DNA from: Candidatus Spongiisociaceae bacterium
Lineage (GTDB): Bacteria > Actinomycetota > Acidimicrobiia > Spongiisociales > Spongiisociaceae
DNA length: 64,000 bases
Assembly: GCA_965202665.1 (NCBI GenBank)
Contig: OZ241841.1
Coordinates: 1,996,189-2,060,188, forward strand
Direction: 5' to 3'
The translations under genes were made by a program, and so were the position numbers. The notes beneath the pieces were generated by a model, which saw only the letters and a list, made by a program, of their open reading frames with translations, was not told where the DNA came from and ran no database searches. Below, piece after piece: positions 2,779 to 35,925 of this stretch (positions are counted from its first letter, which is position 1; the number at the start of each line of letters is the position of its first letter).

Positions 2779-5511
2779 ATGGGAACCGAACCAGCGGAAA
2801 TAGGCGGCGGCGCCGAGGCGGGGGCGGACCCGTTGGAGGTGGTGGACGCCGAACTGCGGGCCGACATCCGGCGGTTGGGCCGGCAATTGGGCGACACGCT
2901 GGTCCGCCAGCACGGGGAGGACCTGTTGGAGTCGGTGGAGGCGGTCCGCACCCTTTCCCGGCGGTTGCGCCTCGCCGAATCGGAGGTTTCCCGGGAGCTG
3001 ACCGAACTGCTGGCCGCCGCCGATCCGGAACGGGCCAGCCTGTTGGTGGGGGCCTTTACCGTCTACTTCCATTTGGCCAATGTGACCGAGCAGGTCCATC
3101 GGGTGGAGGATATGAACGCCGAGGGGGACACCTCCGAACGGCGTTTTGCGGAAACCTTGCGCGCCCTGGTGGAGGGCGGGGTTGCGGCGGACGAAGTAGC
3201 GGCCTTGGTTAACCGCACCGCCCTCAAGCCGGTGTTCACCGCCCACCCCACTGAAGCCACACGCCGTTCGGTGTTGGAAAAGTTGGCCGAAATCGCCCAA
3301 GCCACCGCCGCCCGCAATCGCGAGCGGGCCACTCCCTCCGACCGGGCCCGCATCGATCGGCGGATCAACGAACTGTTGGAGGCCGTGTGGCAGACCGACG
3401 AGATTCGCGCCCGCCGCCCCGATCCGATCGACGAGGCCCGGTTTGTCCGTTACTACTTGGATCAGACCATCCGCGAGGCGATGCCCGCCTTGCTGGATTC
3501 CATCGCGGCCGGGATGGGGGCCATCGGAGGGGAGCTGGCCCCCGCCCACTCCCCAATTAGGTTCGGGTCATGGGTGGGCGGCGACCGGGACGGAAATCCC
3601 AATGTGACCCCGGAGATGACCGAAGCGGTGTTGCTCCAGCAACGCCGGGAATCACTGGAAATCCTCCAAGACCAGGTGCGGGAGTTGGCAAGTCAGATGA
3701 GCGTCGGTTCGCAAGTGGCGGGGGCGCCCGCCGAGATGCGCCAGTTCATCGCCCGCCACCAATCCGACTTCGCCGAAGAGTTGGCTGCCGGGGATCCGGA
3801 TCAGCCCTACCGCCTGGCCTGCTCCGTCATCTTCCAGCGGTTGCGGGAGGCCCGGGACGGGGGTCGGCGCGGCTACCGCAGTCCGGGGGAGATGCAGGCC
3901 GATTTGGCTGCGCTGGATGCGTCGTTGCGGGCCAACAAAGGTGAGTTGCTGGCCGAGGGACGGTTGGCCCGGTTGCGGCGGACGGTGGATATGATCGGGT
4001 TCCACTTGGCCGCCTTGGACATCCGCCAGCACACCGACAGCCACCACGATGCGGTGGCCGCCCTCGCCGCCCCCCTCGGCGTTGATTACGCCGCCGCCGA
4101 CCGCGCCGCCCGTATCGCTTACCTGTCCAAGGAGTTGGACAGCCCCCGCCCGCTGGCCCCGCCCGGCCGGGAAGACGTTCCGGAGGCCCTGGCCCTGTTT
4201 GAAACGTTGCGCCGATGCCTGGATGAGTTGGGCGATGAGGTGGTGGACTCCTACATTATTTCCATGACCGCCGGCCCGGACGATGTGCTGGCCGCGGTGG
4301 TTCTGGCCCGGGAGGTGGGGTTGGTGGACTTGGACCAGGGCGTTGCCCGGCTGGACTTCGTTCCCCTGTTTGAAACCATCGACGACCTGCGTTCCCTGGG
4401 CGAAACCCTTACCGCCCTGTTTGCCATTCCCGCCTACCGGAGGCTGGTGGAGGCGCGGGGCGGGGTGCAGGAGGTGATGGTCGGCTACTCCGACTCCAAC
4501 AAAGACGGCGGAATAACCACTTCGCAATGGGAGATTTACAAGGCGTTGCAGGCGATTCGGGATGTTTCCGAAGCGACCGGGGTGCGGGTGGAGGTGTTTC
4601 ACGGCCGGGGCGGTTCCATCGGCAGGGGGGGCGGTCCCACCCACGCCGCCATTCTCAGCCAGCCGGACGGGGTGTTGGACGGGGTGGTCAAATTCACCGA
4701 ACAAGGCGAGGTGATCGCCGACAAATACGGGTTGCCGGAGCTGGCCGTTCAGAACCTGGATTTGGCCCTGTCGGCTTTGGTGGAGGCCTCGGCGGGCGGC
4801 TCCGCTCCTCCGGCCGACCCGGCGGACGCCGGCCGCTGGAGCCAAATAATGGACCTGATGTCGGAGGCCGCCTATCGGGCCTACCGCGACTTCGCGCAGA
4901 CCCCCGGAATGGTGGAATATTTCGTTTCTTCCACTCCGGTGGAGGAGTTGGCCAGTCTGAACATCGGCTCCCGTCCCGCCCGCCGGGTGGAAGGCGGGGG
5001 GGATGTGGCCGACCTGCGGGCCATCCCCTGGGTGTTCGGTTGGACCCAGTCCCGCCAGATCATCCCCGGTTGGTTCGGGGTGGGGGCCGGGTTGGAGGCG
5101 GTGCGGGAAGCCGGATACGGGGAGGAGGCCTCCCGGATGTACCGGGAGTGGCCTTTTTTCCGGATGTTCGTTTCCAATGTGGAGATGACCTTGGTCAAAA
5201 CCGATCTGGGGATCGCCCGCCATTACGTAAACAACCTGACCCCCCCCGAACACCGGGGCTTGCTGGAGGTGATCTCCGCCGAGCATCGTCGCACCGTTTC
5301 CGGTTTGACGGCGGTGACCGGAGCGGAATTGTTGGCCGACCGCCCCCTCCTGCGGCGCACTTTGACCGTGCGGGACGCCTACCTGGATCCCCTGAACGTG
5401 CTTCAGGTGGAGTTGCTGTCGCGCACCCGGGCGGGCGAAGCCGACAAACACCAGCGGGCCCTGTCGCTGACCATCAACGGCATCGCCGCCGGAATGCGCA
5501 ACACCGGCTGA
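2779..5511 (+). CDS. ppc: phosphoenolpyruvate carboxylase
   Basis: 910 aa; PEPC signatures VFTAHPTE and [10 protein letters not shown]. Confidence 0.95.
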
Positions 5512-5521
5512 CCCGCGCCGG

Positions 5522-7056
5522 TCAGGTTTTAAAGTAAACCGCCGTCCGCCGGGACCCTTCCATCCGCAGTCGGCCTTGGTCCCGTAACCGCCGTAGCAGG
5601 TGGGTGGCTCTGGTGGGGTCAATCAGGCACAATTCGGCTACTTCGCTCCGAGTTATGGAGCCGTTGGCCTCCACATAGTTCATCACCAGCCGTTCCCGTC
5701 TGGCCCACCTGCTGGCCCGCTGGTTTAAGCCAGTCCCAGATTCAACTGGATGGATTTGGGGCAACGGCGCTGTTGGGCCTTGGAACTGGTATTCATTTCT
5801 GGCCTCGTAAAATTCCATCAGATCCGACAGGGGAAACCGTTGGCCGTTGCGGCTCCCCTCCCTAAGTTGCCGGACCATTTGCTTGTCGGCCAATCCGGGG
5901 GCGACGCGGGCTACAACCTGGCGTGGGTCGCTACCGCCGTAATCGGGCGGCGGGCGCCCCAGCAACAGCTGTCCCTCAAAAATACGAGCGATGCCCCGTC
6001 CGGTGCGTTCCACCAGGCCGGCCCCTTTGAAAGCATCGACCAGCCGGGGATTGCGCGCCCGGGGAGGAGCGATTATTAGATTGGCGAGGGTTATCCCCTC
6101 CGGAAAGCCGCCGGGGTTGGAGACCGTTAGCGCGCCGTCGCTGATCTGCACCAGCGTCATTCCCTGATCCGCGTAGTCGCGATGGATGAGGGCGTTGGCG
6201 ATCAGTTCGCGGATGGTTACTTCGGCGAAATGAGGCAAACCGATGCGCTGGGAATCGAGATCCATTTCTTCTTCGGAGTTGCGGGCCCGCACCCGGTCGG
6301 ATATTTCCGCCATTGCCTTGAGCAACGGGATGCGCCGTATCTCATTGACCCGTACCTGCAGATGATCCAGCTCTTGAAAGCCGACTTCGTAGGCGGGCAG
6401 ATGTTTGGCGATGGCCTTTTCTTTGCCGAATAACAACAAAGCCCCTACCGTGATGTTTTCCTCCGAGTCGGTGAGGTTCAGGGCTTGCAGAAGGTCATGG
6501 TCGGAGAGACTGGTTAGGGTTTTGTCGCCGTCTGATTCCGCCATCTCCCGGAAACGGGAAAATTCGGCATCGGAAAGATCGCTCTTGGTCGCCGCAGATA
6601 AAGTTACGCTGGAAAAATCCAGCACGCCGATGCTGCCCGCTCGCCCCACCACTTATGGGGCCGCATAGGAAGACACTCCGGTTGCCCGTGTATGTCCAGC
6701 GTTCGGCGTAGGAACTTGCCGGACTTGGTGGAAACAACATCCTGTCCAACCGGGACCTTAACGGCGATCACTTCCTTGCCGTTGATGGGTACCACCTGTA
6801 CGGCGGCATCTACCGCTGGTTCGGTGCGGCTGGCGATCAACGCTTGCAGTCGCTCTGGATCTGTGTGCCTGCCGTGACGAGGTTCAGCTCCGGTGATATT
6901 TCCTTGGTCGTCAACCCCGACCAGAAGCCAGCCTCCGCGTCCGTTGGCTAAACAGACCACCGATTCCACTAGATCCTTGTCGTTTGCGCGACTTTTGAAC
7001 TCGACGTTGAGCGTCTCGCCTTCGGAAACCAGGCCCTGGAGAGTTGTAGTGTCCAT
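5522..7056 (-). pseudogene. AlbA_2 (Schlafen-like) + HATPase_c_4 + wHTH putative ATP-dependent DNA-binding regulator, interrupted by a frameshift near 6605-6650
   Basis: ORF 6604..7056 carries the AlbA_2 domain (LNVEFKS...GGWLLVGVDD...KFLRRTLDIHGQPECLPMRP). ORF 5522..6652 continues in another frame with SIGVLDFSS, then the ELIANALIHRDY HATPase motif and a C-terminal wHTH. The two ORFs overlap by 49 nt. Confidence 0.65.
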
Positions 7057-22397: not shown

Positions 22398-23671
22398 GCA
22401 TGACCGAAGAGCGGCCGCTCAGCCTTTCCCAGCCGGGGATGCTGCCCCGTTACCGGTGGATACTGTACGGGTTGAGCGGGATTATGTTGCTGGCGGTGAC
22501 CCAGCAGTTCGCCGCCCTGCCCACTGAAGATCTGACCTCCAGCGGCACCTGGTCCATCGCTTTGGCTTGGTCGGTGCCCATTTTGCTGGCCGGCCTGGGC
22601 GGCATGTTCTCCGAACGGGCCGGGATCGTCAACATCGGACTGGAGGGGATGTTGATTCTCGGCACCTGGTTCGGGGCTTACGGAACGGTGGTGGCCGGGC
22701 CGTGGGCGGGGATGCTGATGGCGGGTATCGCCGGGGCGGTGGGCGGACTGATCATGGCCGCGGCCGCGGTCGGATTCAACGTGGATCATATTATCGCCGG
22801 GGTGGCCATCAACCTGATGGCCCCCGGTTTGACCCGCTTCCTGTCCGATGTGCATTTCTCCGACCGGGGCGGCTCCATTACCCAGTCGCCGGTCATCTCC
22901 GGGGTGAGCGATTTCACCTTGCCCATCCTGGCGGGCGGAACCATCCTCGGATGGCGGAGCCCGGACCTGTTGGGGGCGATCGAGCGGTCGGGCTGGTTTT
23001 TCATCTCCGACTTTGCTGGCGTCCTGCGCGGGTTTGTTTTTCAGATGTCCTGGTTCACCCTGCTGGTCTACCTGTTCGTGCCCTTCTCCATTTTCCTGTT
23101 ATGGCGCACCAAGTTCGGCCTGCGGTTGCGCAGTTGCGGCGAGCATCCGCAGGCGGCCGATTCCCTGGGGGTCAACGTTTACAAGTACAAGTACTACGGG
23201 GTGGTGATCAGCGGGGCCCTGGCCGGGGCGGGGGGCGGCTTTCTGGCCATTCAGCTGTCCGGCGTCTACAAGGAGGGGCAGACGCAGGGCAAAGGGTTCA
23301 TCGGTTTGGCCACCATGATTTTCGGCAACTGGAACCCGTTGGGCACTGCCCGGGGGGCCATCCTGTTCGGGTTCACGGAGACCCTGCGCTTGCGGGATCC
23401 CAACGCGGCCCACGGGCTGTTGTTGCTGGTGGTGATCTCGGTGGGTCTTTTAATCCTGTGGCGCATCCTCCGCAAACGGGGCGTGGGAACCTGGCAGTTG
23501 GCGATTGTGGCCATCGCCGTCGGATACTGGTATTTCAACTCCACCGGGGTGCCCAACCAGTTGCCGGCCATCACCCCCCACATCGTGGTGCTGGTGGTTC
23601 TCCTGTTCGCCACCTCCCGATTGCGTCCGCCCGCCTCCGCCGGCCTGCCCTACCGCAAGGGCGAAGATTAG
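22394..23671 (+). CDS. ABC transporter permease (CUT2 family, second subunit)
   Basis: Polytopic permease; start overlaps the preceding stop. Confidence 0.8.
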   Translation: MSMTEERPLSLSQPGMLPRYRWILYGLSGIMLLAVTQQFAALPTEDLTSSGTWSIALAWSVPILLAGLGGMFSERAGIVNIGLEGMLILGTWFGAYGTVVAGPWAGMLMAGIAGAVGGLIMAAAAVGFNVDHIIAGVAINLMAPGLTRFLSDVHFSDRGGSITQSPVISGVSDFTLPILAGGTILGWRSPDLLGAIERSGWFFISDFAGVLRGFVFQMSWFTLLVYLFVPFSIFLLWRTKFGLRLRSCGEHPQAADSLGVNVYKYKYYGVVISGALAGAGGGFLAIQLSGVYKEGQTQGKGFIGLATMIFGNWNPLGTARGAILFGFTETLRLRDPNAAHGLLLLVVISVGLLILWRILRKRGVGTWQLAIVAIAVGYWYFNSTGVPNQLPAITPHIVVLVVLLFATSRLRPPASAGLPYRKGED

Positions 23672-23691
23672 CTGTTCCGCGAGGTCCCGGC

Positions 23692-24531
23692 ATGGTTGAG
23701 ATCATCCCCCACATCGACGATATCGGGGTCACGTTGGGGTCGGTGCGGGCCATGGAGGAGCTGGCCGGCCGGGGGTTTGTCACTTCCGGTTCGGTTATGG
23801 CCCCCTGTCCCTGGTTGGCGGAGGCGGCCGCCCTGTCCGCCCGCCGCCCGGAGCTGGATCTGGGTCTGCATCTCACGCTCACCTCCGAGTCGGCGCGTAT
23901 GCGCTGGCGGCCCCTTTCCACCCGCTCCCCCGCCTCCGGGTTGATCGACGGGGACGGGTTCATGTGGCCCACGGTTCCGCAGTTGCGGGCCAACGCCCAT
24001 CCGGGGGCGGTGGAGGAGGAACTGGAAGCCCAGATTGAGGCGGCCCGCCGGGCGGGGATGGAGCCCACCCATCTGGATCATCATATGGGAGCGGCTTTCG
24101 CTCCCGAGTTCGCCGCTCTGACCGTGCGCATCGCCCGTCGCCGCCGGTTGCCGGTTTTGATACCGGCCGACCCGGCCGCCTACGCGGGGGTTCTGGAGTG
24201 GGGGGAGGCCGATATGCGGGTTCTGGAGGAGGTGCGGGACCGGGAGCAAGCCGCCGGCGCGGTGTTGGCGGACCGGTTTTTGATGGGTCTGGCCTTCCAA
24301 GACGAGGAGCCCGACGCGGTTTATCGGCGTTTTTTGGCTGAAGCGGAGGGTTTGACTTTTCTGTCGTTGCACTGCGACTCCCCCGGCGAGGTTACGGCCG
24401 TCCACCCCAACGACGCCGGCTGGCGCATCGCCGAATACGAGTGGGTCAAAGCGGGGGCCGCCCCTCTGCCCGACGGAGTCCGCCTGACGGACTTCCGGTC
24501 GCTGTCCGCCCGCTGGCGTTGGCCTGCCTAA
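23692..24531 (+). CDS. ChbG/YdjC-family carbohydrate deacetylase-like protein
   Basis: MVEIIPHIDDIGVTLGSVRAMEEL...GSVMAPCPW is a YdjC-like N-terminus. The internal ATG at 23692 is chosen because ORF 22567..24531 otherwise runs in an alternative frame across the permease. Confidence 0.65.
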   Translation: MVEIIPHIDDIGVTLGSVRAMEELAGRGFVTSGSVMAPCPWLAEAAALSARRPELDLGLHLTLTSESARMRWRPLSTRSPASGLIDGDGFMWPTVPQLRANAHPGAVEEELEAQIEAARRAGMEPTHLDHHMGAAFAPEFAALTVRIARRRRLPVLIPADPAAYAGVLEWGEADMRVLEEVRDREQAAGAVLADRFLMGLAFQDEEPDAVYRRFLAEAEGLTFLSLHCDSPGEVTAVHPNDAGWRIAEYEWVKAGAAPLPDGVRLTDFRSLSARWRWPA

Positions 24532-24570
24532 AGGTTCCGAGAACAATGCAAACCCGCCCGAAATTTCGGA

Positions 24571-24790
24571 GTTTGACAGAGTTTATGCGTTTCGCATAAG
24601 GTTGATAAGGTGGGGTTAGGTTTGTATAACTCTCCATCAGCGAGGAAGTTTGACAGAGTTTATGCGTTTCGCATAAGGTTGATAAGGTGGGGTTAGGTTT
24701 GTATAACTCTCCATCAGCGAGGAAGTTTGACAGAGTTTATGCGTTTCGCATAAGGTTGATAAAGTATAGTAAGGTCTGAATAACTATGGA
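24571..24790. repeat. tandem direct repeat, 77-bp unit x 2 identical copies + 1 diverged copy, each with promoter-like hexamers and a 17-bp palindrome
   Basis: Units 24571-24647 and 24648-24724 are identical. Unit 3 (24725-24790) diverges in its distal half and runs into the ATPase start codon. Not a CRISPR array: units abut with no spacers. Confidence 0.85.
24583..24753 (+). promoter_or_regulatory. three evenly spaced copies of the perfect palindrome TTATGCG-TTT-CGCATAA (candidate operator array), plus a TTGATA-N17-TATAAC promoter-like element in each of the two identical units
   Basis: Palindromes at 24583-24599, 24660-24676 and 24737-24753. TTGACA and TTGATA hexamers. A further palindrome CCGAAATTTCGG at 24558-24569. 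Confidence 0.5.
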
Positions 24791-25970
24791 CGTAAACGAA
24801 AATCCGTATCGCCCCGGAGCCGGTACCAGGCCTCCGGTGCTGAGAGGACGCGATGATCTATTCGCCCGCTTCGAGGGCATAGTAGAACATGCACTCCGCG
24901 GGCGGCCCGGTAAAAGCTTGGTGTTGCTGGGCTTGCGCGGCGTCGGCAAGACCGTGTTGTTGAACCAGTTCGTCAGTCTCGCCGAGCAGAAGGGTTACAG
25001 CACGGGACATATGGAGGCCGATGAATCCCAGGACCTGCGTTTGTTGATGGCCATGCGCCTGCGTCGGATTCTGCTGGCCTTGCAAAGACGACGCCCGTCG
25101 CAAAAAATTATGCGGGCGTTGCGGATACTGAAAGCCTTCAGCTACCAGTTGCCGGATGGTTCCCTTGTCACTTTGGATGTGGAGGCGTTGCGGGGTTACG
25201 CCGATTCCGGCGTTATCGGCGATGACCTAACGGATTTGCTGGTCGCCGTAGGGGAGGCGGCCGCAGGCCAGGAGCGAGGCGTGCTGTTGGCGGTAGATGA
25301 AATTCAGTATTTGGCGAAAGAGGAGTTGGGAGGGTTGATTGCCGCTATTCACCGTACCACCCAACTGGATCTTCCGGTGGTGCTGGTGGGAGCCGGCCTG
25401 CCCCAGTTGCCCAAATTGGCGGGTGAGGCTAAATCTTACTCGGAACGGTTGTTTGAATTTCCCTTTGTCAACTCTTTGTCGGAGGAAGACGCCGCGGCCG
25501 CCATCGCCCTGCCGGCGGCGCCGTTGGGAGTGGAGTTTGCGGACGCCGCCTTGGAAGCCATCTTCGCCAACTCAAAAGGCTATCCGTATTTTCTGCAGGG
25601 TTGGGGTTATTACGTATGGAATGAGGCCGGCGTCTCTCCGGTTGGTCCGGAGGCGGTGCGGGCCGCGGCCGAGTTGGTCGTCAAGCATCTGGATCGCGAT
25701 TTCTATGCGATGCGCTTTGATCGCTTGACTCTCAAAGAAAAAACATATTTACGGACTATGGCCGAATTCAAATCCAGCAAGATACGCTCCGGGGATATCG
25801 CCGCCCGCCTCGGGGTTCCGGTGGAGAACGCCGCTCCCCGGCGCAGCGCCTTGATCCGGAAGGGCATGATTTACAGTCCCGGGTACGGCGAGACGGCTTT
25901 CACCGTCCCCATGTTTGACGATTTTTTGCGGCGGCAGATGCCGGATTTTCAGGCGGCGACGGGCGATTGA
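24786..25970 (+). CDS. AAA_16/STAND-like ATP-binding protein with C-terminal winged-helix domain
   Basis: N-terminal NPYRPGAG..PPVLRGRDDL followed by Walker A GLRGVGKT and Walker B LLAVDEIQ. Codon usage is visibly AT-richer than the host genes (gta, ata, aaa, tta codons). Confidence 0.65.
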   Translation: MDVNENPYRPGAGTRPPVLRGRDDLFARFEGIVEHALRGRPGKSLVLLGLRGVGKTVLLNQFVSLAEQKGYSTGHMEADESQDLRLLMAMRLRRILLALQRRRPSQKIMRALRILKAFSYQLPDGSLVTLDVEALRGYADSGVIGDDLTDLLVAVGEAAAGQERGVLLAVDEIQYLAKEELGGLIAAIHRTTQLDLPVVLVGAGLPQLPKLAGEAKSYSERLFEFPFVNSLSEEDAAAAIALPAAPLGVEFADAALEAIFANSKGYPYFLQGWGYYVWNEAGVSPVGPEAVRAAAELVVKHLDRDFYAMRFDRLTLKEKTYLRTMAEFKSSKIRSGDIAARLGVPVENAAPRRSALIRKGMIYSPGYGETAFTVPMFDDFLRRQMPDFQAATGD

Positions 25971-26160
25971 CGGCTGGTTGGATTTGGCGGCCGGCCGGGT
26001 ATGGCGTATAATGCTTCCCTTGCGTCCGCTTGCGGGCGGGCGCGCGACCGTAGACAGCCGGCGCCGTAAAGCGTAAGCGGCCCGTTCGGGTCCGCCTGCC
26101 GAGGTCCTTCCCGGTCTCCGGGCGGCTGTCGCGGGTGGAGCAGAGCCAAGGAGAGACCAA
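25971..26160 (+). promoter_or_regulatory. rplJ 5' leader (possible L10 autoregulatory leader)
   Basis: 190-nt GC-rich structured untranslated region immediately upstream of rplJ. Position only; consensus not verified. Confidence 0.3.
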
Positions 26161-26859
26161 ATGCCCCGACCGGACAAGGTCCAGGCAGTCGAAGATATCA
26201 AGCAACGGTTCCAGAATGCCTCAGCCGCTTTCCTGACTGAATATCGCGGGTTGCCGGTGGCCCGCCAGCAGGAACTGCGCGGGGCCCTGCACGACGCCGG
26301 GGCCGGATACAAGGTGCTGAAAATGTCCCTTACCCGCCGGGCGTTGGACGAGCTGGGGATGGAGGGGCTAGATGAATGGCTGACCGGCCCCACCGCCATC
26401 GCGTTCACCGGCGATGATCCCGTTCCGGCCGCCCGCGCCCTAGCCGACTTCGCCAAGGCGAACGACGCCTTTTTAATTAAGGGGGGATGGTTCAACGGGG
26501 AGGCCATCCCGTCGGAAGTGGTTTCCCGGCTGGCCAACATCGACTCCCGCGAGGCGCTGTTGGCCAAAACGGCGGGCGCTTTTAAAGGGCCCCTCAACAA
26601 GATGGCGGCGGTTATGGGTTCTTTCACCCGAGAGGCCGCCTCCCTGTTCTCCGCCCTGTTGGAACGCAAAGAGGAGATACCGTCGGAGGCCGCCCCCGTC
26701 GCCGGCGGCTCCGAAGAGCCGGCTCCGCCGGCCCAGGATGCCGCCCCGGCCCCCGATGTTGATTCCGAGTCCGTTCCTACCGCCGCGGCCGGAGAAGACG
26801 ACGAAGCGGACGGGGCGGAGGGCGCCGACCCCGATCAGATCACCCAAGACAATCAATAA
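26161..26859 (+). CDS. rplJ: 50S ribosomal protein L10, with acidic C-terminal extension
   Basis: L10 fold sequence; D/E/A/P-rich tail. Confidence 0.9.
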
Positions 26860-31068: not shown

Positions 31069-34000
31069 GTGCGCGAGCTGTTCGATGAACTGAAAATTGG
31101 TTTGGCGTCCTCCGATCAGGTGCGGTCCTGGTCGTTCGGGGAGGTGAAGAAGCCGGAGACCATCAACTACCGCAGCTTGAAGCCGGAGAAGGACGGGCTG
31201 TTCGACGAGCGCATTTTCGGTCCGCAGAAGGACTGGGAATGCTACTGCGGCAAATACAAGCGTTTTCGCTACCGGGGCATCGTGTGCGAAAAATGCGGCG
31301 TGGAGGTGACCCGCAAGGATGTGCGCCGGGATCGGATGGGCCACATCGACCTGGCCGCCCCGGTCACCCATATCTGGTTTTTCAAAGGAGTCCCCTCCCG
31401 GTTGGGGTATCTGCTGGACATGTCCCCCAAAAACCTGGAGATGATCATCTACTTTGCGGCCTACGTGATCACGGAAGTGGACGAAGGCAAACGGATGGTG
31501 GATCTGCCCGACCTGGAGGAGCAGATGCGGGCCGAGTTGGAAATTGTGGGGGAGGAGTTGGAGGAGTGGCGGTTGGAGCGGCTGTCCCGGTTGGAGAAGC
31601 AGGTGGAGCAGATGGAGGAGGCGGGGGCCAAGCTGGCGGAGGTGGCCACCGTGCGCCGCGAGGCGGAGCGGGAAATCAAGGATCGGGAGGAGAAAGCGGA
31701 GAAGGAACGCGAGTTGATCAAGGAGAGTTTTGCGGAATTTCGCGAGTTGCGTCCCAAAGATCTGGTGGAGCGGGAGGATTTGTGGAGGGAGATGCACGAA
31801 CGCTACTCGGCCTACTTCGATGGGGGAATGGGGGCGGAGGCGGTGAAGAAATTGCTGTCCAAGGTGGATTTGGACGCCGAGATGGAGGAGTTGCGGGAAG
31901 GTTTGCAATCATCGTCGGCGCAACGGAAACTGCGCTCCGGGCAACGTGTGAAGGTGGTGAAGCCCTTCTGGGAGGGCAAGCATTCGCCGGAGAGCATGAT
32001 TATAGAGGCGGTTCCGGTCATCCCGCCTGAGTTGCGACCCATGGTGCAGTTGGACGGGGGGCGCTTCGCCACCTCCGACCTGAATGACCTGTACCGGCGG
32101 GTGATTAACCGCAACAATCGCCTGAAGCGGCTGTTGGGGTTGAACGCCCCCGAGATCATCATCAACAACGAGAAGCGCATGTTGCAGGAGGCGGTGGACG
32201 CCCTGTTCGACAACGGGCGGCGGGGGCGGGCGGTGCCCGGTACCGGCAATCGTCCCTTGAAGTCTTTGACCGACATGTTGAAGGGCAAAGCGGGGCGGTT
32301 CCGGCAGAACCTGCTGGGGAAGCGAGTGGATTATTCCGGCCGGTCGGTGATCGTGGTGGGCCCGCAGTTGAAGTTGCATCAGTGCGGTTTGCCCAAGGTG
32401 ATGGCGTTGGAGTTGTTCAAGCCGTTCGTGATGAAGCGGCTGGTGGACCGGGATTTGGCGGCCGGCATCAAGGCGGCCAAGCGGATGGTGGAGCGGCAAC
32501 GTCCGCAGGTGTGGGACGTGTTGCGGGAGGTGATACAGGATCATCCGGTGTTGCTCAACCGGGCCCCCACTTTGCACCGGCTGGGGATTCAAGCTTTCGA
32601 ACCGTTGCTGGTGGAAGGCAAAGCCATACAGATTCATCCCCTGGTGTGCGAGGCTTTCAACGCCGACTTCGACGGGGATCAGATGGCGGTGCATCTCCCC
32701 TTGTCTCCGGAGGCGCAGGCCGAGGCGCGGGTGCTGATGCTGTCCACCAACAACGTACGTTCCCCGGCCAGCGGCCATCCCATCGTGTCCCCCTCCCAGG
32801 ACATGGTCATCGGCCTCTACTACCTGTCGGCGAATATCAAAAAAGAAGGCGCCTTGGGGACAGGCCGGTACTTTGCCGATCTGCCGGAGGCGTTGATGGC
32901 CTATGACTTGGGTGAGTTGGAAGTGCACGCCCCGATCAAAATTCGGATGGGCGATATGGCGGGCGACCCGCAGGTGCACGCCGAGCTGAAGGATCTGATC
33001 GGGTATCTGATCACCGACCAACCGGTGGATGGCCAGGTTCCGATGGACACCACTTTGGGCAAGGCCTTACTCAACCAAGCCCTGCCCGCCGATTTCCCGT
33101 TGATCGACGCTCCTTTGTTGAAGAGCGGCATCAAAGACCTGCTCGCTGAGATCATCGACCGCTACGACAAGGCGGTGGTGCAACGCACTCTGGACGGGCT
33201 CAAGGATTTGGGTTTCGCCTTTTCCACCCAGGCGGGGCTCACCGTGGGTTTGAACGATGTGACCACCCCGCTCGACAAGCCGAAGATACTTAACGAGGCG
33301 GAGGACAGGGCGCAGAAGAAGGAACGAGAGTACCAGCAGGGGAGCATTACCGCCCAGGAACGGGATCAGGAGTTAGTGGAGATTTGGAGCGAAGCCACCG
33401 AAGAGTTAACCCAGAAGGTGCGCACTTCCCTGTCCGATCAGGACTTCAACCCCATTGATATGATGATGAGCTCCGGCGCCCGGGGCAACATCATGCAGGT
33501 GCGCCAGATAGCCGGTATTCGCGGCTTGGTGGCTAACAACCGCGGACGCATCATCCCCCGGCCCATCAGGTCTAATTTCCGAGAGGGGATGACTGTGCTG
33601 GAGTATTTCATGTCCACGCACGGGGCCCGCAAAGGTCTGACCGACACCGCTCTGAAAACCGCCGACGCTGGTTATCTGACCCGCCGCCTGGTGGATGTGT
33701 CCCAAGAGATTATCGTCTCCGAAGAGGAATCGGAGGATCGGGGCATCGACATCCGCGTACGGGATGCAAAAGGCGATACCCTCCCCGACTTGCGCAACCG
33801 CATCTACGGGCGGGTGTTGGCCGAAGATGTGAAAGTGGATTACAAGTTGCGTATCACCCGCCCCGGTGATTCCAACTTCGAAGCTGGCCAAACCGTGGAG
33901 TTCACGAAGTTTGCGTCCGTCAAACGGGAGTTGTTGGAGGCTGGCAAAAAACCGGCCGAAGGTCGGCCGACGGGAGGTAAAACGGCCCTTACCAAGGATG

Positions 34001-35925
34001 GCGTGGCTCTGGAGGCGGGGGCGGTGATTGACCGCAAGGTGATGGTGGAACTGCAGGCTATGCCGGAAGTCGACTCGGTGCGGGTGCGTTCCCCGCTCAC
34101 CGACGAGATCCGGCACGGCATCAGCCGCGCTTCCTACGGGCTGAGCATGTCCACCAACCAACTGGCGGAACCGGGCGAGGCGGTGGGGGTGATGGCCGCC
34201 CAGTCCATCGGCGAGCCGGGCACGCAGCTGACCATGCGCACCTTTCATACCGGGGGGGTGGCCGATGAAACGGATATCACCCACGGCCTGCCCCGGGTGG
34301 TGGAGTTGTTCGAAGCCCGCTCCCCCAAGGGAAAGGCCATCTTGGCCGAGGCCAGCGGAAAAGTGCGCATTGACGATGGTGAAGAGGGGGTGCGCGCTTT
34401 GGTAATCGAATCCCCCCGGAGCGGGGAAGTCAAATACCGCTTGTCCCCCAACGCCCGGTTGCGGCCCGGGGTGCGAGAGGGGGGTGAAGTCGCCGCCGGA
34501 GATCAACTTACCGAAGGGCCGTTGGATCCCAAAGAGGTGTGCCTCATCAGAGGAGTGCGGGCCTGTCAGCAGTATCTGGTGGATCAGGTGCAGGATGTGT
34601 ACCGCAACCAGGGGGTGGAGATTCACGACAAGCACATCGAGCTGATCGTGCGGCAGATGTTGCGCAAAGTGCGCATCATCGAGCCCAACGACACCGATTT
34701 TCTGCCCATGCAGATGGTGGATCAGGGAGAGTTCCGGGACACCAACCGGGAGTTGGCGGCCGCGGGCAAGCAACCGGCCGAGGGCCGTCCGGAGCTGATG
34801 GGGATCACCAAGGCCTCGCTGGCTACCGAGTCCTGGTTGTCGGCCGCATCCTTCCAGGAAACCAGCCGCGTGCTCACCGAGGCGGCCATCAACGGACGCT
34901 CCGACTACCTGCGGGGACTGAAGGAGAACGTGATCATCGGCAAGCTGATTCCGGCCGGCACCGGTTCCGATGAATACCAGAAACTCCAACCCGAGCTGTC
35001 CCAGGCGCAGATAACACCCCCCTTGACCGGAGCCGACTGGTTGGCCGTGCGGGAGATGGAAGTATTCACCGAAGAGGTCGCCGGTGAGGCCGAGGATAAG
35101 GCCGCCCAAGCCGAGGAGGCCCGGGCCAGGGCGGAGGAGAAAAAGGCGGAGGTGAACGCCGCCACTGACGATGCCGAGAAATATACTTTGAGGAGGGAAA
35201 GAGACGAAGAATATGAACGGGCCGCCCGCTATGACCGGGAGGCGGCCGAGGAGGAGGAGCGGGCCGCGGCCCGCAAGTTGGCCCATGCCCAAGCGAAGGC
35301 GGAGGAGGCCGAGGAAGCCGAAGCGGCCGCCCAGGAGAAAGAGTTGGAACAGGCTCGCAAAGAGGCGGAAAAGGCCCGGCAAGCGGTGGAGAAGGCCCGG
35401 GAGAAGGAAGACAAGGCCGCCAAAACGCGCCGGGAGAGGGCCGCCAAAGAGGCGCAAAAATGGAAGGATCGGGCACAGCGGGCATTGCGAGAGGCCGAAG
35501 GGAAGCAGAAGCAGGTGGCTGATAAAACGGAGCAGGCTAAAGCCGCGCTGGATATAAGCGCAAAGGTGGATTTGGCGCGGCAGGTCGTGTCTGAATCCGA
35601 GAAGGTGATCCAAGGCGTACGGGAAGCGAGGAAAGCGGCAACGGTAGCCCAGGAGGCTGAAGTTAAGGCTGAGCTGGAAGATACAGAAGCGCCGCAGGTA
35701 ATAGAGGACGCCGAACAGGTGATCCTAGATGTGGAGCAAAAGGTTCAGGAGTTGCGGGCCTCGCTGGATGCTCCCCAACAGGATGCGGGAGCTATTGACA
35801 GATCCCTCGACGAGAACCGCGAGTCCTTGACGAGGATGGCCGTTACCTTGCAGAAGTTCACCGACTGGTTGAAAAAAATCGGCGAGCTCGTCGCCGATGC
35901 CCTAAAGAAACTGCTGGGAGGGTAA
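31069..35925 (+). CDS. rpoC: DNA-directed RNA polymerase subunit beta', carrying a ~330-aa K/E/A/R-rich coiled-coil C-terminal extension
   Basis: Canonical RpoC through ...[14 protein letters not shown] (about residue 1280), then a low-complexity charged tail to residue 1618. GTG start. Confidence 0.9.

Follow-up and report, generated by a model that had tools for sequence, protein, structure and literature searches.

What does a tandem array of 77-bp repeats do in front of a solitary ATPase gene, and how did gene and array come to stand directly upstream of rplJ? The question is raised by a 64,000-nucleotide stretch of the genome of a Candidatus Spongiisociaceae bacterium (assembly GCA_965202665.1, contig OZ241841.1), referred to here as the window, in which three such repeats lie directly ahead of a gene for an AAA_16-type ATPase. 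An initial annotation, made from the DNA letters, had read the repeats and the gene as a horizontally acquired module, either an autoregulated NTPase with an iterated operator or an iteron-like origin with its initiator-type ATPase, left over from a plasmid or integrative element. Here, we compare the locus with its homologs across the bacterial phyla. The autoregulated NTPase is the best-supported option, as judged from a cis architecture that appears to recur throughout the ATPase family. In the explanation that we favor, and hold to be probable though not strongly so, the ATPase would bind as an ATP-dependent oligomer to an array of hexamers ahead of its own gene and exert negative autoregulation, and the 77-bp units would be amplified copies of this operator and promoter. 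The finding would then belong with DNA-binding AAA+ proteins that have repeated sites next to the gene encoding them, and the tandem amplification would be peculiar to this clade.

Hexamer arrays ahead of the ATPase gene

A period-77 array is reported by Tandem Repeats Finder at 24570-24762 (2.5 copies, 100% matches, score 386), and a gap-free repeat finder resolves it into three head-to-tail units (Table 1). As first described, two of these are identical (100%) and the third is half-diverged (77% identity); it departs from units 1 and 2 past GGTTGATAA, and the ATG of the ATPase gene falls inside it, so that the array does run into the start codon. The perfect 17-bp palindrome TTATGCGTTTCGCATAA, which had been seen in each unit, is present at 24583, 24660 and 24737 and has no other occurrence in the 64 kb (0.06 expected with at most three mismatches). 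Each unit also contains one TTGACA, at 24573, 24650 and 24727. The promoter-like pair TTGATA-N17-TATAAC, which had been attributed to all three units, is found in two of them (24602-24630 and 24679-24707), but the unit 3 counterpart at 24756-24784 has AATAAC as its second hexamer.

With one inverted and four direct sites, each 77-bp unit is one complete copy of a hexamer array that is widespread in the ATPase family, plus the promoter region. The direct sites are spaced by 9, 11 and 10 bp in each unit. The 17-bp palindrome is the junction between the inverted site and the first direct site, and the TTGATA-N17-TATAAC pair is made up of direct sites 2 and 4. The 77-bp phasing just reflects how long the duplicated segment is, and the meaningful element is the set of hexamers phased at ~10 bp, neither the palindrome nor the 77-bp period. 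Phased-hexamer clusters in the window number three in all, one per unit (that of unit 1 at 24595-24630).

For the family comparison, 80 loci with homologs of 45-60% identity were taken from representative genomes of GTDB species; they come from Actinomycetota, Proteobacteria, Chlamydiae, Planctomycetota, Chloroflexota, Bacteroidota, Verrucomicrobiota, Elusimicrobia and others; individual loci are given by handles such as L011. When the 160 nt 5' of the start codons were read by eye, an AT-rich array of short repeats was seen in almost every one of them. The hexamers are variants of TATAAC, GATAAA and CATAAG/GTAAG, or more rarely GTTAAC, CTAAAC and TAGAAC, with ATAA as the core, and they are laid out as a left block of inverted sites and a right block of direct sites that ends a few nucleotides ahead of the ATG. 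The array of L057, cTTATAGgtagTTATAGccacTTATAGcgacttttcgCTATAAgtggCTATAActacCTATAAg, is a perfect 3+3 palindrome, while that of L011, gatCTTATGcatgagcgaCATAAGgtcGATAAAcctaaGTAAGctctatcaatATG, is nearly superimposable on the proximal unit of the window, gagTTTATGcgtttcGCATAAGgttGATAAAgtataGTAAGgtctgaataactATG, whose sites correspond one by one in layout to those of L011 and L008-L010. Hexamer variant and protein subfamily go together: by eye, ATAAG sites go with APRR in the protein, GTTAA sites with ATVR and SQRHGE, and TATAA sites with RTGD...GPVRAKL.

The phasing and placement of the sites are also apparent from counts. Among exact 5-mer self-matches between -110 and -1 in 77 loci, lag 10 was found 190 times (9 times in the distal control), lag 9 was found 69 times and lag 20 was found 73 times. 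TTATA and TATAA occur 86 and 83 times, respectively, upstream of the gene versus 3.4 expected. Inverted sites cluster at -70 to -40 and direct sites at -35 to -11, and the GC content is 41% in the upstream array region versus 58% farther upstream. Phased clusters of at least three sites are present in 25 of the 77 proximal regions versus five in the other ~614 kb. A -10-like hexamer is situated 6 nt before the ATG in 17 of the 80 loci and 8 nt before it in nine, with zero to four loci at any other offset of up to 14 nt, and a Shine-Dalgarno-like sequence precedes the gene in just seven. From these fixed offsets and the scarcity of Shine-Dalgarno sequences, many members of the family probably have leaderless mRNAs, and the array would lie over the core promoter.

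Arrays also precede one Legionella plasmid copy and many prophage and viral-contig copies of the gene, some of them at 31-32% identity. Because the neighboring genes are unrelated, the array travels with the gene. The repeated sites thus appear, from their sequence and position, to overlap the gene's own promoter region and to be kept with the gene, which is the architecture of an iterated operator.

Within the Acidimicrobiia, where the host is placed by its RpoB (72-75% identity to named metagenome-assembled genomes), it belongs to a tight clade at 85-100% RpoB identity whose members carry two to five tandem units of 47, 58 or 77 bp. Two units are present in L001 (ATPase 99% identical) and in L004 (89%), where the distal one is diverged. 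L092 (RpoB 95% identical) has three 77-bp units with single-nucleotide polymorphisms, the left palindrome arm reading ACGGG, ACGCG or ATGCG, L093 (86%) has two ~58-bp units followed by TATAAT and a 55-nt leader, and L005 (87%) has five 47-bp units. In these relatives the hexamers are conserved and the left palindrome arm is variable, and a core of GAGTTT-N9-GC(A/G)(T/C)AAG(G/A)TTG is kept in all clade units. The variable arm and the 47- and 58-bp units speak against the initial proposal that palindromes at exact 77-bp phasing are the functional sites. The further palindrome that had been noted just upstream of the array, CCGAAATTTCGG, does exist, but no palindrome is present at the corresponding positions of L001, L004 and L092.

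The distal units of L092 and L004 resemble the proximal one through ...TATAACTtTGG, from which it follows that the ancestral duplication took in the start-codon region, and the identity of units 1 and 2 in the window points to a recent re-duplication or gene conversion. If the array is an operator as proposed, the 77-bp repeats would be an amplification, in tandem and specific to this clade, of operator and promoter together. Exact matches to a degenerate 30-nt core of the unit were sought in JGI metagenome contigs, with 0 found.

Some loci depart from the common layout. The scan of 77 loci flagged a cluster starting upstream of -110 in two cases, a separate distal array in L033 and an extension of the proximal array in L049. 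In the Parachlamydiaceae, L033 (probably also L053) has three phased TATAA(C/G) sites at -147 to -121, ~100 bp upstream of its main array; outside the clade of the window, the scan for phased clusters flagged no other second array that was both distal and separate. L012 contains an 8-bp tandem repeat (GCCCGATC) in ~9 copies at about -160 to -90, directly 5' of the hexamer array. In L114-L125, which are large viral contigs of 69-164 kb from IMG/VR, the homologs are at 34-37% identity and are preceded by a TTGACA...TATAAT promoter and a Shine-Dalgarno sequence, not by a leaderless hexamer array.

The ATPase, its fold and its relatives

The gene that follows the array encodes a protein of 394 residues, whose assignment to the AAA_16 type is upheld by Pfam: AAA_16 (PF13191) is matched at 45.9 bits versus a cut-off of 32.6, with the whole profile covered by residues 19-201, and AAA_22 is matched at 34.8 bits versus 27. 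Across 79 homologs, G49, G52, K55, T56, D171 and E172 are invariant and G54 is nearly so, and many residues outside the two Walker motifs are invariant too. An AlphaFold model based on a 79-sequence alignment has a pLDDT of 85.5 and a pTM of 0.83, with values of 65-76 for the C-terminal domain and below 50 for its wing. In a Foldseek comparison with the PDB, 316 chains are matched at E ≤ 0.001, led by RuvB, DNA-bound Orc1/Cdc6, SSO1545 and ORC subunits; the top TM-scores are those of SSO1545 (2fna, 0.60/0.66) and PAB2304 (2qen, 0.58/0.64), and the alignments span the full length of AAA+ proteins that terminate in a winged helix. The model and these alignments support a predicted three-domain fold of alpha/beta AAA+ base, helical lid and winged helix, as in SSO1545, Orc1/Cdc6 and RuvB. 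The C-terminal winged helix that had been claimed for the protein is accordingly backed by AlphaFold and Foldseek but not by Pfam, which gives no match for the isolated C-terminal 100 residues. The features of the locus are collected in Table 1.

Table 1. Features of the ATPase locus and the adjoining rplJ region; positions are counted from the first letter of the window.
Feature	Position	Strand	Remarks
Palindrome CCGAAATTTCGG	24558..24569	.	Just 5' of the array; probably incidental
Unit 1, distal, one full site array	24570..24646	+	TTGACA 24573; palindrome 24583-24599
Unit 1 sites	Inverted GAGTTTATG 24579-24587; direct CATAAG 24595, GATAAG 24604, GTTAGG 24615, TATAAC 24625	+	
Unit 2, distal	24647..24723	+	Same sequence as unit 1 (100%); phased cluster 24672-24707
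Unit 3, proximal, canonical upstream region of the family	24724..24800	+	ATG 24786
Unit 3 sites	Inverted GAGTTTATG 24733; direct CATAAG 24749, GATAAA 24758, GTAAGG 24769, AATAAC 24779	+	
Solitary AAA+ ATPase with predicted winged helix, 394 aa	24786..25970	+	Pfam AAA_16/AAA_22; AlphaFold model; Foldseek
Walker A GLRGVGKT, residues 49-56	24930-24953	+	
Walker B LLAVDEIQ, residues 167-174	25284-25307	+	
Lid motif GYPYFLQGWG	25578-25607	+	
C-terminal winged-helix-like domain, residues 313-384	25722..25937	+	Helix pattern in models; Foldseek alignments
Putative recognition helix VENAAPRRSALIRKG	25821-25865	+	
Wing MIYSPGYGETAFTVP	25866-25910	+	pLDDT <50
rplJ promoter-like TTGGCG-N17-TATAAT	25984..26012	+	Sole sigma-70-type call in 24300-26300; clade-conserved
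Conserved rplJ 5' leader, ~150 nt	26013..26160	+	Right side of the rearrangement breakpoint
rplJ (L10)	26161..26859	+	Pfam Ribosomal_L10; 190 nt past the ATPase end; then rplL, rpoB, rpoC

Membership in better-known families was considered and rejected. Among the profiles that had been named for searching, AAA_16 was matched, while the Arch_ATPase, Orc/Cdc6 and DnaA-type profiles stayed below their cut-offs. PF01637 (ATPase_2/Arch_ATPase) reaches 22.7 bits versus 33.2, indicating a related fold but not a member. TIGR02928 (Orc1/Cdc6) reaches 19.3 bits versus 181.3 in the P-loop region alone, and a PDB profile search reaches ORC4 at E = 0.53. For the DnaA/Hda group, TIGR03420 (Hda) gives 22 bits versus 194.8, and the Pfam scan has no Bac_DnaA match. 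The description of the protein as STAND-like cannot be maintained, as nSTAND_NTPase5 is matched at 17.7 bits versus 34, sensor repeats are absent and the protein stops after the winged helix. The best PADLOC match is mad8 (E = 4e-4, 18 bits), again in the P-loop region alone and without conserved neighbors. An iteron replicon is contradicted by the lack of a Rep-family Pfam match, by sites that are 6-mers at 10 bp and by the chromosomal, clade-stable setting. NCBIfam, PADLOC and the PDB sequence profile thus returned sub-threshold P-loop matches alone, and PHROGs returned a match to phrog_6841, a family of unknown function.

The family itself is very large. The ATPase has matches in more than 8,000 clusters at 90% identity, those at ~60% identity coming from Acidimicrobiia, Acidobacteria and others, and an exhaustive profile search yields 1,523 clusters (50% identity) at E ≤ 1e-30 and 5,586 at E ≤ 1e-10. 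Nearly all members are 385-410 aa long, and this uniform length means that there are no fused domains in the family. Of 72,556 plasmids, 118 carry a homolog, 58 IMG/VR contigs do so as well, and INPHARED has one unverified record; plasmid and RefSeq annotations call them just 'ATP-binding protein' or 'AAA family ATPase'. No conserved partner gene was found among the neighbors of the 80 homologs, 142 of 146 being singletons and mostly housekeeping enzymes. Taken as a whole, the family has a patchy distribution, is mobile and extends to almost every bacterial phylum, in agreement with the initial view of gene and array as a self-contained module. A full-text literature search retrieved no description of the ATPase family or of its site array.

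Several known systems resemble the locus in part. The best whole-chain structural match is to the archaeal Arch_ATPase proteins (PF01637; SSO1545/2fna and PAB2304/2qen), which have the same three-domain plan in ~350 aa; the sequence identity is 15-16%, however, and the family of the window occurs in bacteria and has a cis array of defined form, and no such array is known to us for the archaeal proteins. Archaeal Orc1/Cdc6 with its ORB and mini-ORB sites likewise combines AAA+ and winged helix (Foldseek 2v1u, 2qby and 1fnn) and has opposed repeated sites adjoining its own gene in an AT-rich region. In contrast, the sites of the window are 6-mers at 10-bp spacing that abut the ATG, in an ordinary chromosomal context with no MCM or replication partners. 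DnaA and its boxes, with autoregulation at the dnaA promoter and opposed arrays in oriC, offer a parallel for the proposed ATP-dependent oligomer on phased, oriented short sites and for the proposed repression of the protein's own promoter, but the site sequence and spacing differ. DnaA binds DNA by the helix-turn-helix of domain IV, not by a C-terminal winged helix. In iteron plasmids, direct and inverted copies of a short site lie 5' of the gene for the binding protein, and a similar logic of autorepression would be expected. Their Rep proteins, however, are of the WH1-WH2 type and lack an ATPase domain, and the iterons measure 17-22 bp and recur every ~22 bp; the protein of the window has no Rep-family Pfam match, and the locus does not have a replicon to itself. 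Finally, STAND/AAA_16 regulators such as MalT and IniR work as multimeric regulators that depend on ATP, with an ATPase module (AAA_16-type or SSO1545-like) linked to a DNA-binding domain. They are 800-900 aa long, contain sensor repeats and a LuxR-type helix-turn-helix and regulate other operons, whereas the window family is ~390 aa and has no sensor or effector. The nearest precedent retrieved from the literature is IniR, a much larger SSO1545-like STAND regulator of mycobacteria, the ATPase domain of which was modelled on SSO1545 (PMC5760070).

Possible functions of the array

In the favored explanation, the ATPase would bind the hexamers through its winged helix, and the binding would be that of an ATP-dependent oligomer arranged along one face of the DNA. 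The bound oligomer would occlude the gene's own promoter and so bring about negative autoregulation, as DnaA and iteron Rep proteins do. The extra units of the clade may be auxiliary operators that work by cooperativity or by titration, and they may also be additional weak promoters, each of them having TTGACA-N18-TAAGGT. Within unit 3, TAAGGT at 24770-24775 is a weak TAnnnT candidate for the -10 element, 10 nt ahead of the ATG.

Several observations weigh against this explanation. The gene's own promoter candidates, TTGACA-N18-TAAGGT and the near-leaderless TAAGGT at 24770, are tied to a weak -10 assignment, and the promoter-like pairs of the initial annotation fare no better, as a sigma-70 consensus scan of 24300-26300 calls no promoter within the array; TATAAC was not called because the T6 rule failed. 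The leaderless layout is not universal, the L005/L093 subclade having its 55-nt leader after TATAAT. The winged-helix domain is predicted with moderate model confidence and is without a Pfam match. In a mutual-information scan of 276 variable columns, the winged helix holds two of the top 20 (hypergeometric p = 0.91); covariation between site and winged helix was therefore discarded as evidence of binding, the signal being spread over the whole protein and inseparable from shared ancestry. Contigs that encode the exact protein of the window have two units in short-read assemblies (L087/L089) and three in the long-read genome, and a copy-number polymorphism among strains is not claimed, since it is inseparable from the collapse of repeats in short-read assembly. 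Few other family members have a secondary distal array, and extra units that are selected and extra units that are neutral fit alike. Moreover, self-regulation by itself is not a function for the gene.

An unlikely alternative, which agrees with all that was observed and is the most interesting one, is that the array would be the functional target itself, a nucleation or loading platform on which an ATP-dependent filament or ring forms, as with DnaA or Orc1/Cdc6, to act on DNA in cis; autoregulation would be a side effect. The output might then be a switch, silencing, DNA remodeling or a defense-related sensor, with the extra units widening the platform. The fold is common to Orc1/Cdc6-DNA complexes, RuvB and MuB filaments, and the two opposed blocks of sites are spaced by helical turns on one DNA face; the family is uniform in length and without a fused effector (1,523 clusters at E ≤ 1e-30), its members are cargo on plasmids and prophages, and multiple array copies are retained throughout the clade. 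The argument is nevertheless one of purely structural analogy. The neighbors of the homologs include no partner gene for loading or activation, PADLOC and NCBIfam membership is lacking, and phased clusters beyond the promoters are scarce, with none outside the three units in the window and five in the other ~614 kb of homolog loci. At the opposite extreme, the phased AT-rich hexamers could be promoter architecture that the ATPase does not bind, either DNA that is intrinsically curved or UP-like or the binding sites of some host factor, and the 77-bp repeats would be neutral promoter duplications in tandem. We consider this quite improbable. The sites are indeed -10-like (resembling TATAAT), AT-rich and phased at 10 bp as in curved DNA, and the mutual-information test is without winged-helix-specific covariation. 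Yet GTTAAC, CTAAAC and TAGAAC are not A-tracts and are uniform per locus while differing between subfamilies, strict dyads such as that of L057 are typical of specific protein binding, and the array follows its gene in hosts from Chlamydiae to Actinomycetota, for which there is no obvious common factor.

The second option of the initial annotation, an iteron-like origin with an initiator-type ATPase, either still active or left behind by a plasmid or integrative element, has become very improbable. An Orc1/Cdc6-like domain architecture, opposed repeated sites that adjoin the gene in an AT-rich region and the presence of homologs on 118 plasmids and in 58 viral contigs would all agree with it. 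The scores for TIGR02928 (19.3 versus 181.3) and Hda (22 versus 194.8 bits) do not, however, and the locus itself shows neither mobile or replication genes nor an inflection of the GC skew. The homologs have unrelated housekeeping genes as neighbors, with no integrase, Rep or helicase partner, and the plasmid that was examined is equipped with a typed replicon of its own. The two blocks are a few bp apart and abut the ATG with no unwinding element between them, and the inheritance of the locus beside rplJ is stable throughout the clade. Least credible of all, and barely worth entertaining, is an element at the RNA level, in which transcripts from the upstream units would form the hairpin UUAUGCG-UUU-CGCAUAA in the 5' untranslated region as an attenuator, a stability element or a protein-binding element. 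The predicted fold of the unit has a minimum free energy of -7.3 kcal/mol (DNA parameters; z = -2.5), and across the clade units 85.7% of cells pair (G-U allowed), with three pairs changing on both sides; the same pairing, however, is obtained in 53 of 500 shuffles, and just six distinct sequences enter the comparison. The left arm is altered without compensation in units of L092 and L004, no Rfam match is found even at E ≤ 1, and there is no RNA rationale for the 10-bp periodicity or the block of direct repeats. In many members the -10 lies downstream of the array, so that the array is untranscribed there.

An odd local repeat here provides a handle on a very large ATPase family that is labelled just 'ATP-binding protein' in databases. 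The family has a clearly defined and easily testable cis element, namely hexamers phased at 10 bp in two opposed blocks that would overlap a leaderless promoter. The family would also offer a bacterial comparison for how AAA+/winged-helix proteins read oriented site arrays. A bolder generalization, which we offer with considerable reservation, is that the family is an unrecognized class of portable modules of a gene plus a private landing pad, where the AAA+ protein would assemble with ATP on two opposed blocks of helically phased hexamers and from where it would exert a DNA-level activity beyond self-repression, such as a switch, remodeling or defense. On that same doubtful footing, the pad of the window clade could be a variable-number tandem repeat of two to five units 5' of rplJL-rpoBC that tunes the ATPase and possibly read-through. 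In this genome, the tandemly amplified operator and promoter now stand just 5' of the rplJL-rpoBC operon, following a break between rplKA and rplJL.

History of the locus

The order of genes in the window is an ABC-transporter operon, a YdjC-family gene, the ATPase, L10, L7/L12, RpoB and RpoC. In each clade member examined (RpoB ≥86%), the ATPase lies immediately 5' of rplJ-rplL-rpoB-rpoC. In two outgroups (RpoB 74-75%), the order is secE-nusG-rplK-rplA-rplJ-rplL-rpoB, with no ATPase at that place, and rplK and rplA are not in the 64-kb window. The module thus does separate rplJ from its former neighbors, as had been suspected, and the canonical secE-nusG-rplKA-rplJL linkage appears, from the gene orders compared, to have been broken in the ancestor of the clade. 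The rplJ promoter and leader of the window align with the rplA-rplJ spacer of the outgroup L094, which places the breakpoint between 25970 and ~25984.

A recent acquisition of the ATPase, as the initial annotation had proposed, is not borne out. The gene stands beside rplJ in all relatives out to 86-87% RpoB identity, and between L005 and the window the ATPase is 77% identical, RplJ 80%, RpoB 87% and RplL 91%; the divergence of the ATPase is in line with that of RplJ and RpoB, as fits co-inheritance. The closest homologs outside the clade (63-67% identity) are also from Acidimicrobiia. The gene is therefore an old resident, by all indications from sequence comparison vertically inherited beside rplJ since the ancestor of the clade. 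The base composition on which the earlier proposal had been founded was read correctly. The codon usage is AT-richer than that of the host, with a GC3 of 0.69 versus 0.76-0.87 in the surrounding genes, and the GC content is 45% in the array, 58.8% in the ATPase gene and 61-69% in the adjacent genes. Conservation of ATPase and array at this position together with host-typical codon usage had been named as evidence that would count against a recent transfer; the conservation is found, but the codon usage is not host-typical in the relatives either, GC3 being ~0.70-0.73 and likewise atypical in L005, L092 and L093. Across 75 loci, the GC content of the gene follows that of its flanks (r = 0.89, slope 0.79), and in hosts of more than 60% GC the ATPase gene averages 3.4 points below them. 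As all clade members show this offset, and as high-GC hosts tend to show it across the family, it is no sign of a recent arrival, and low GC was rejected as proof of recent transfer.

The left flank of the module is less stable than the right. In L005, an ISL3-family transposase gene (4293-5681 of that locus) stands upstream in place of YdjC, directly 5' of the array (5690-5930), from which the left flank is variable and the rplJ side is fixed. The rplJ leader contains blocks that are common to L092, L005, L093 and L094, including GACCG-AGACAGCCGG, GTAAGCG and CGCCTGCCGAGGTC. Rfam gave no match for the whole window at gathering thresholds or for 24400-26300, including the rplJ leader, at E ≤ 1, and the leader may be an uncatalogued L10-leader variant.

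Three further observations concern the neighboring genes. RpoC (31069-35925) is 1614-1623 aa long in the clade versus 1304-1332 aa in outgroup Acidimicrobiia, a gap from which an insertion of ~290 aa particular to this lineage follows. The clade has a longer RplJ as well, at 204-232 aa versus 188 aa in L094. On the other side of the array, the 654-aa open reading frame at 22567-24531 is an artefact of a high-GC open frame; the true YdjC-family gene starts near 23674, and gene calls in near-identical contigs give it 279 aa (L087-L089) or 285 aa (L001).

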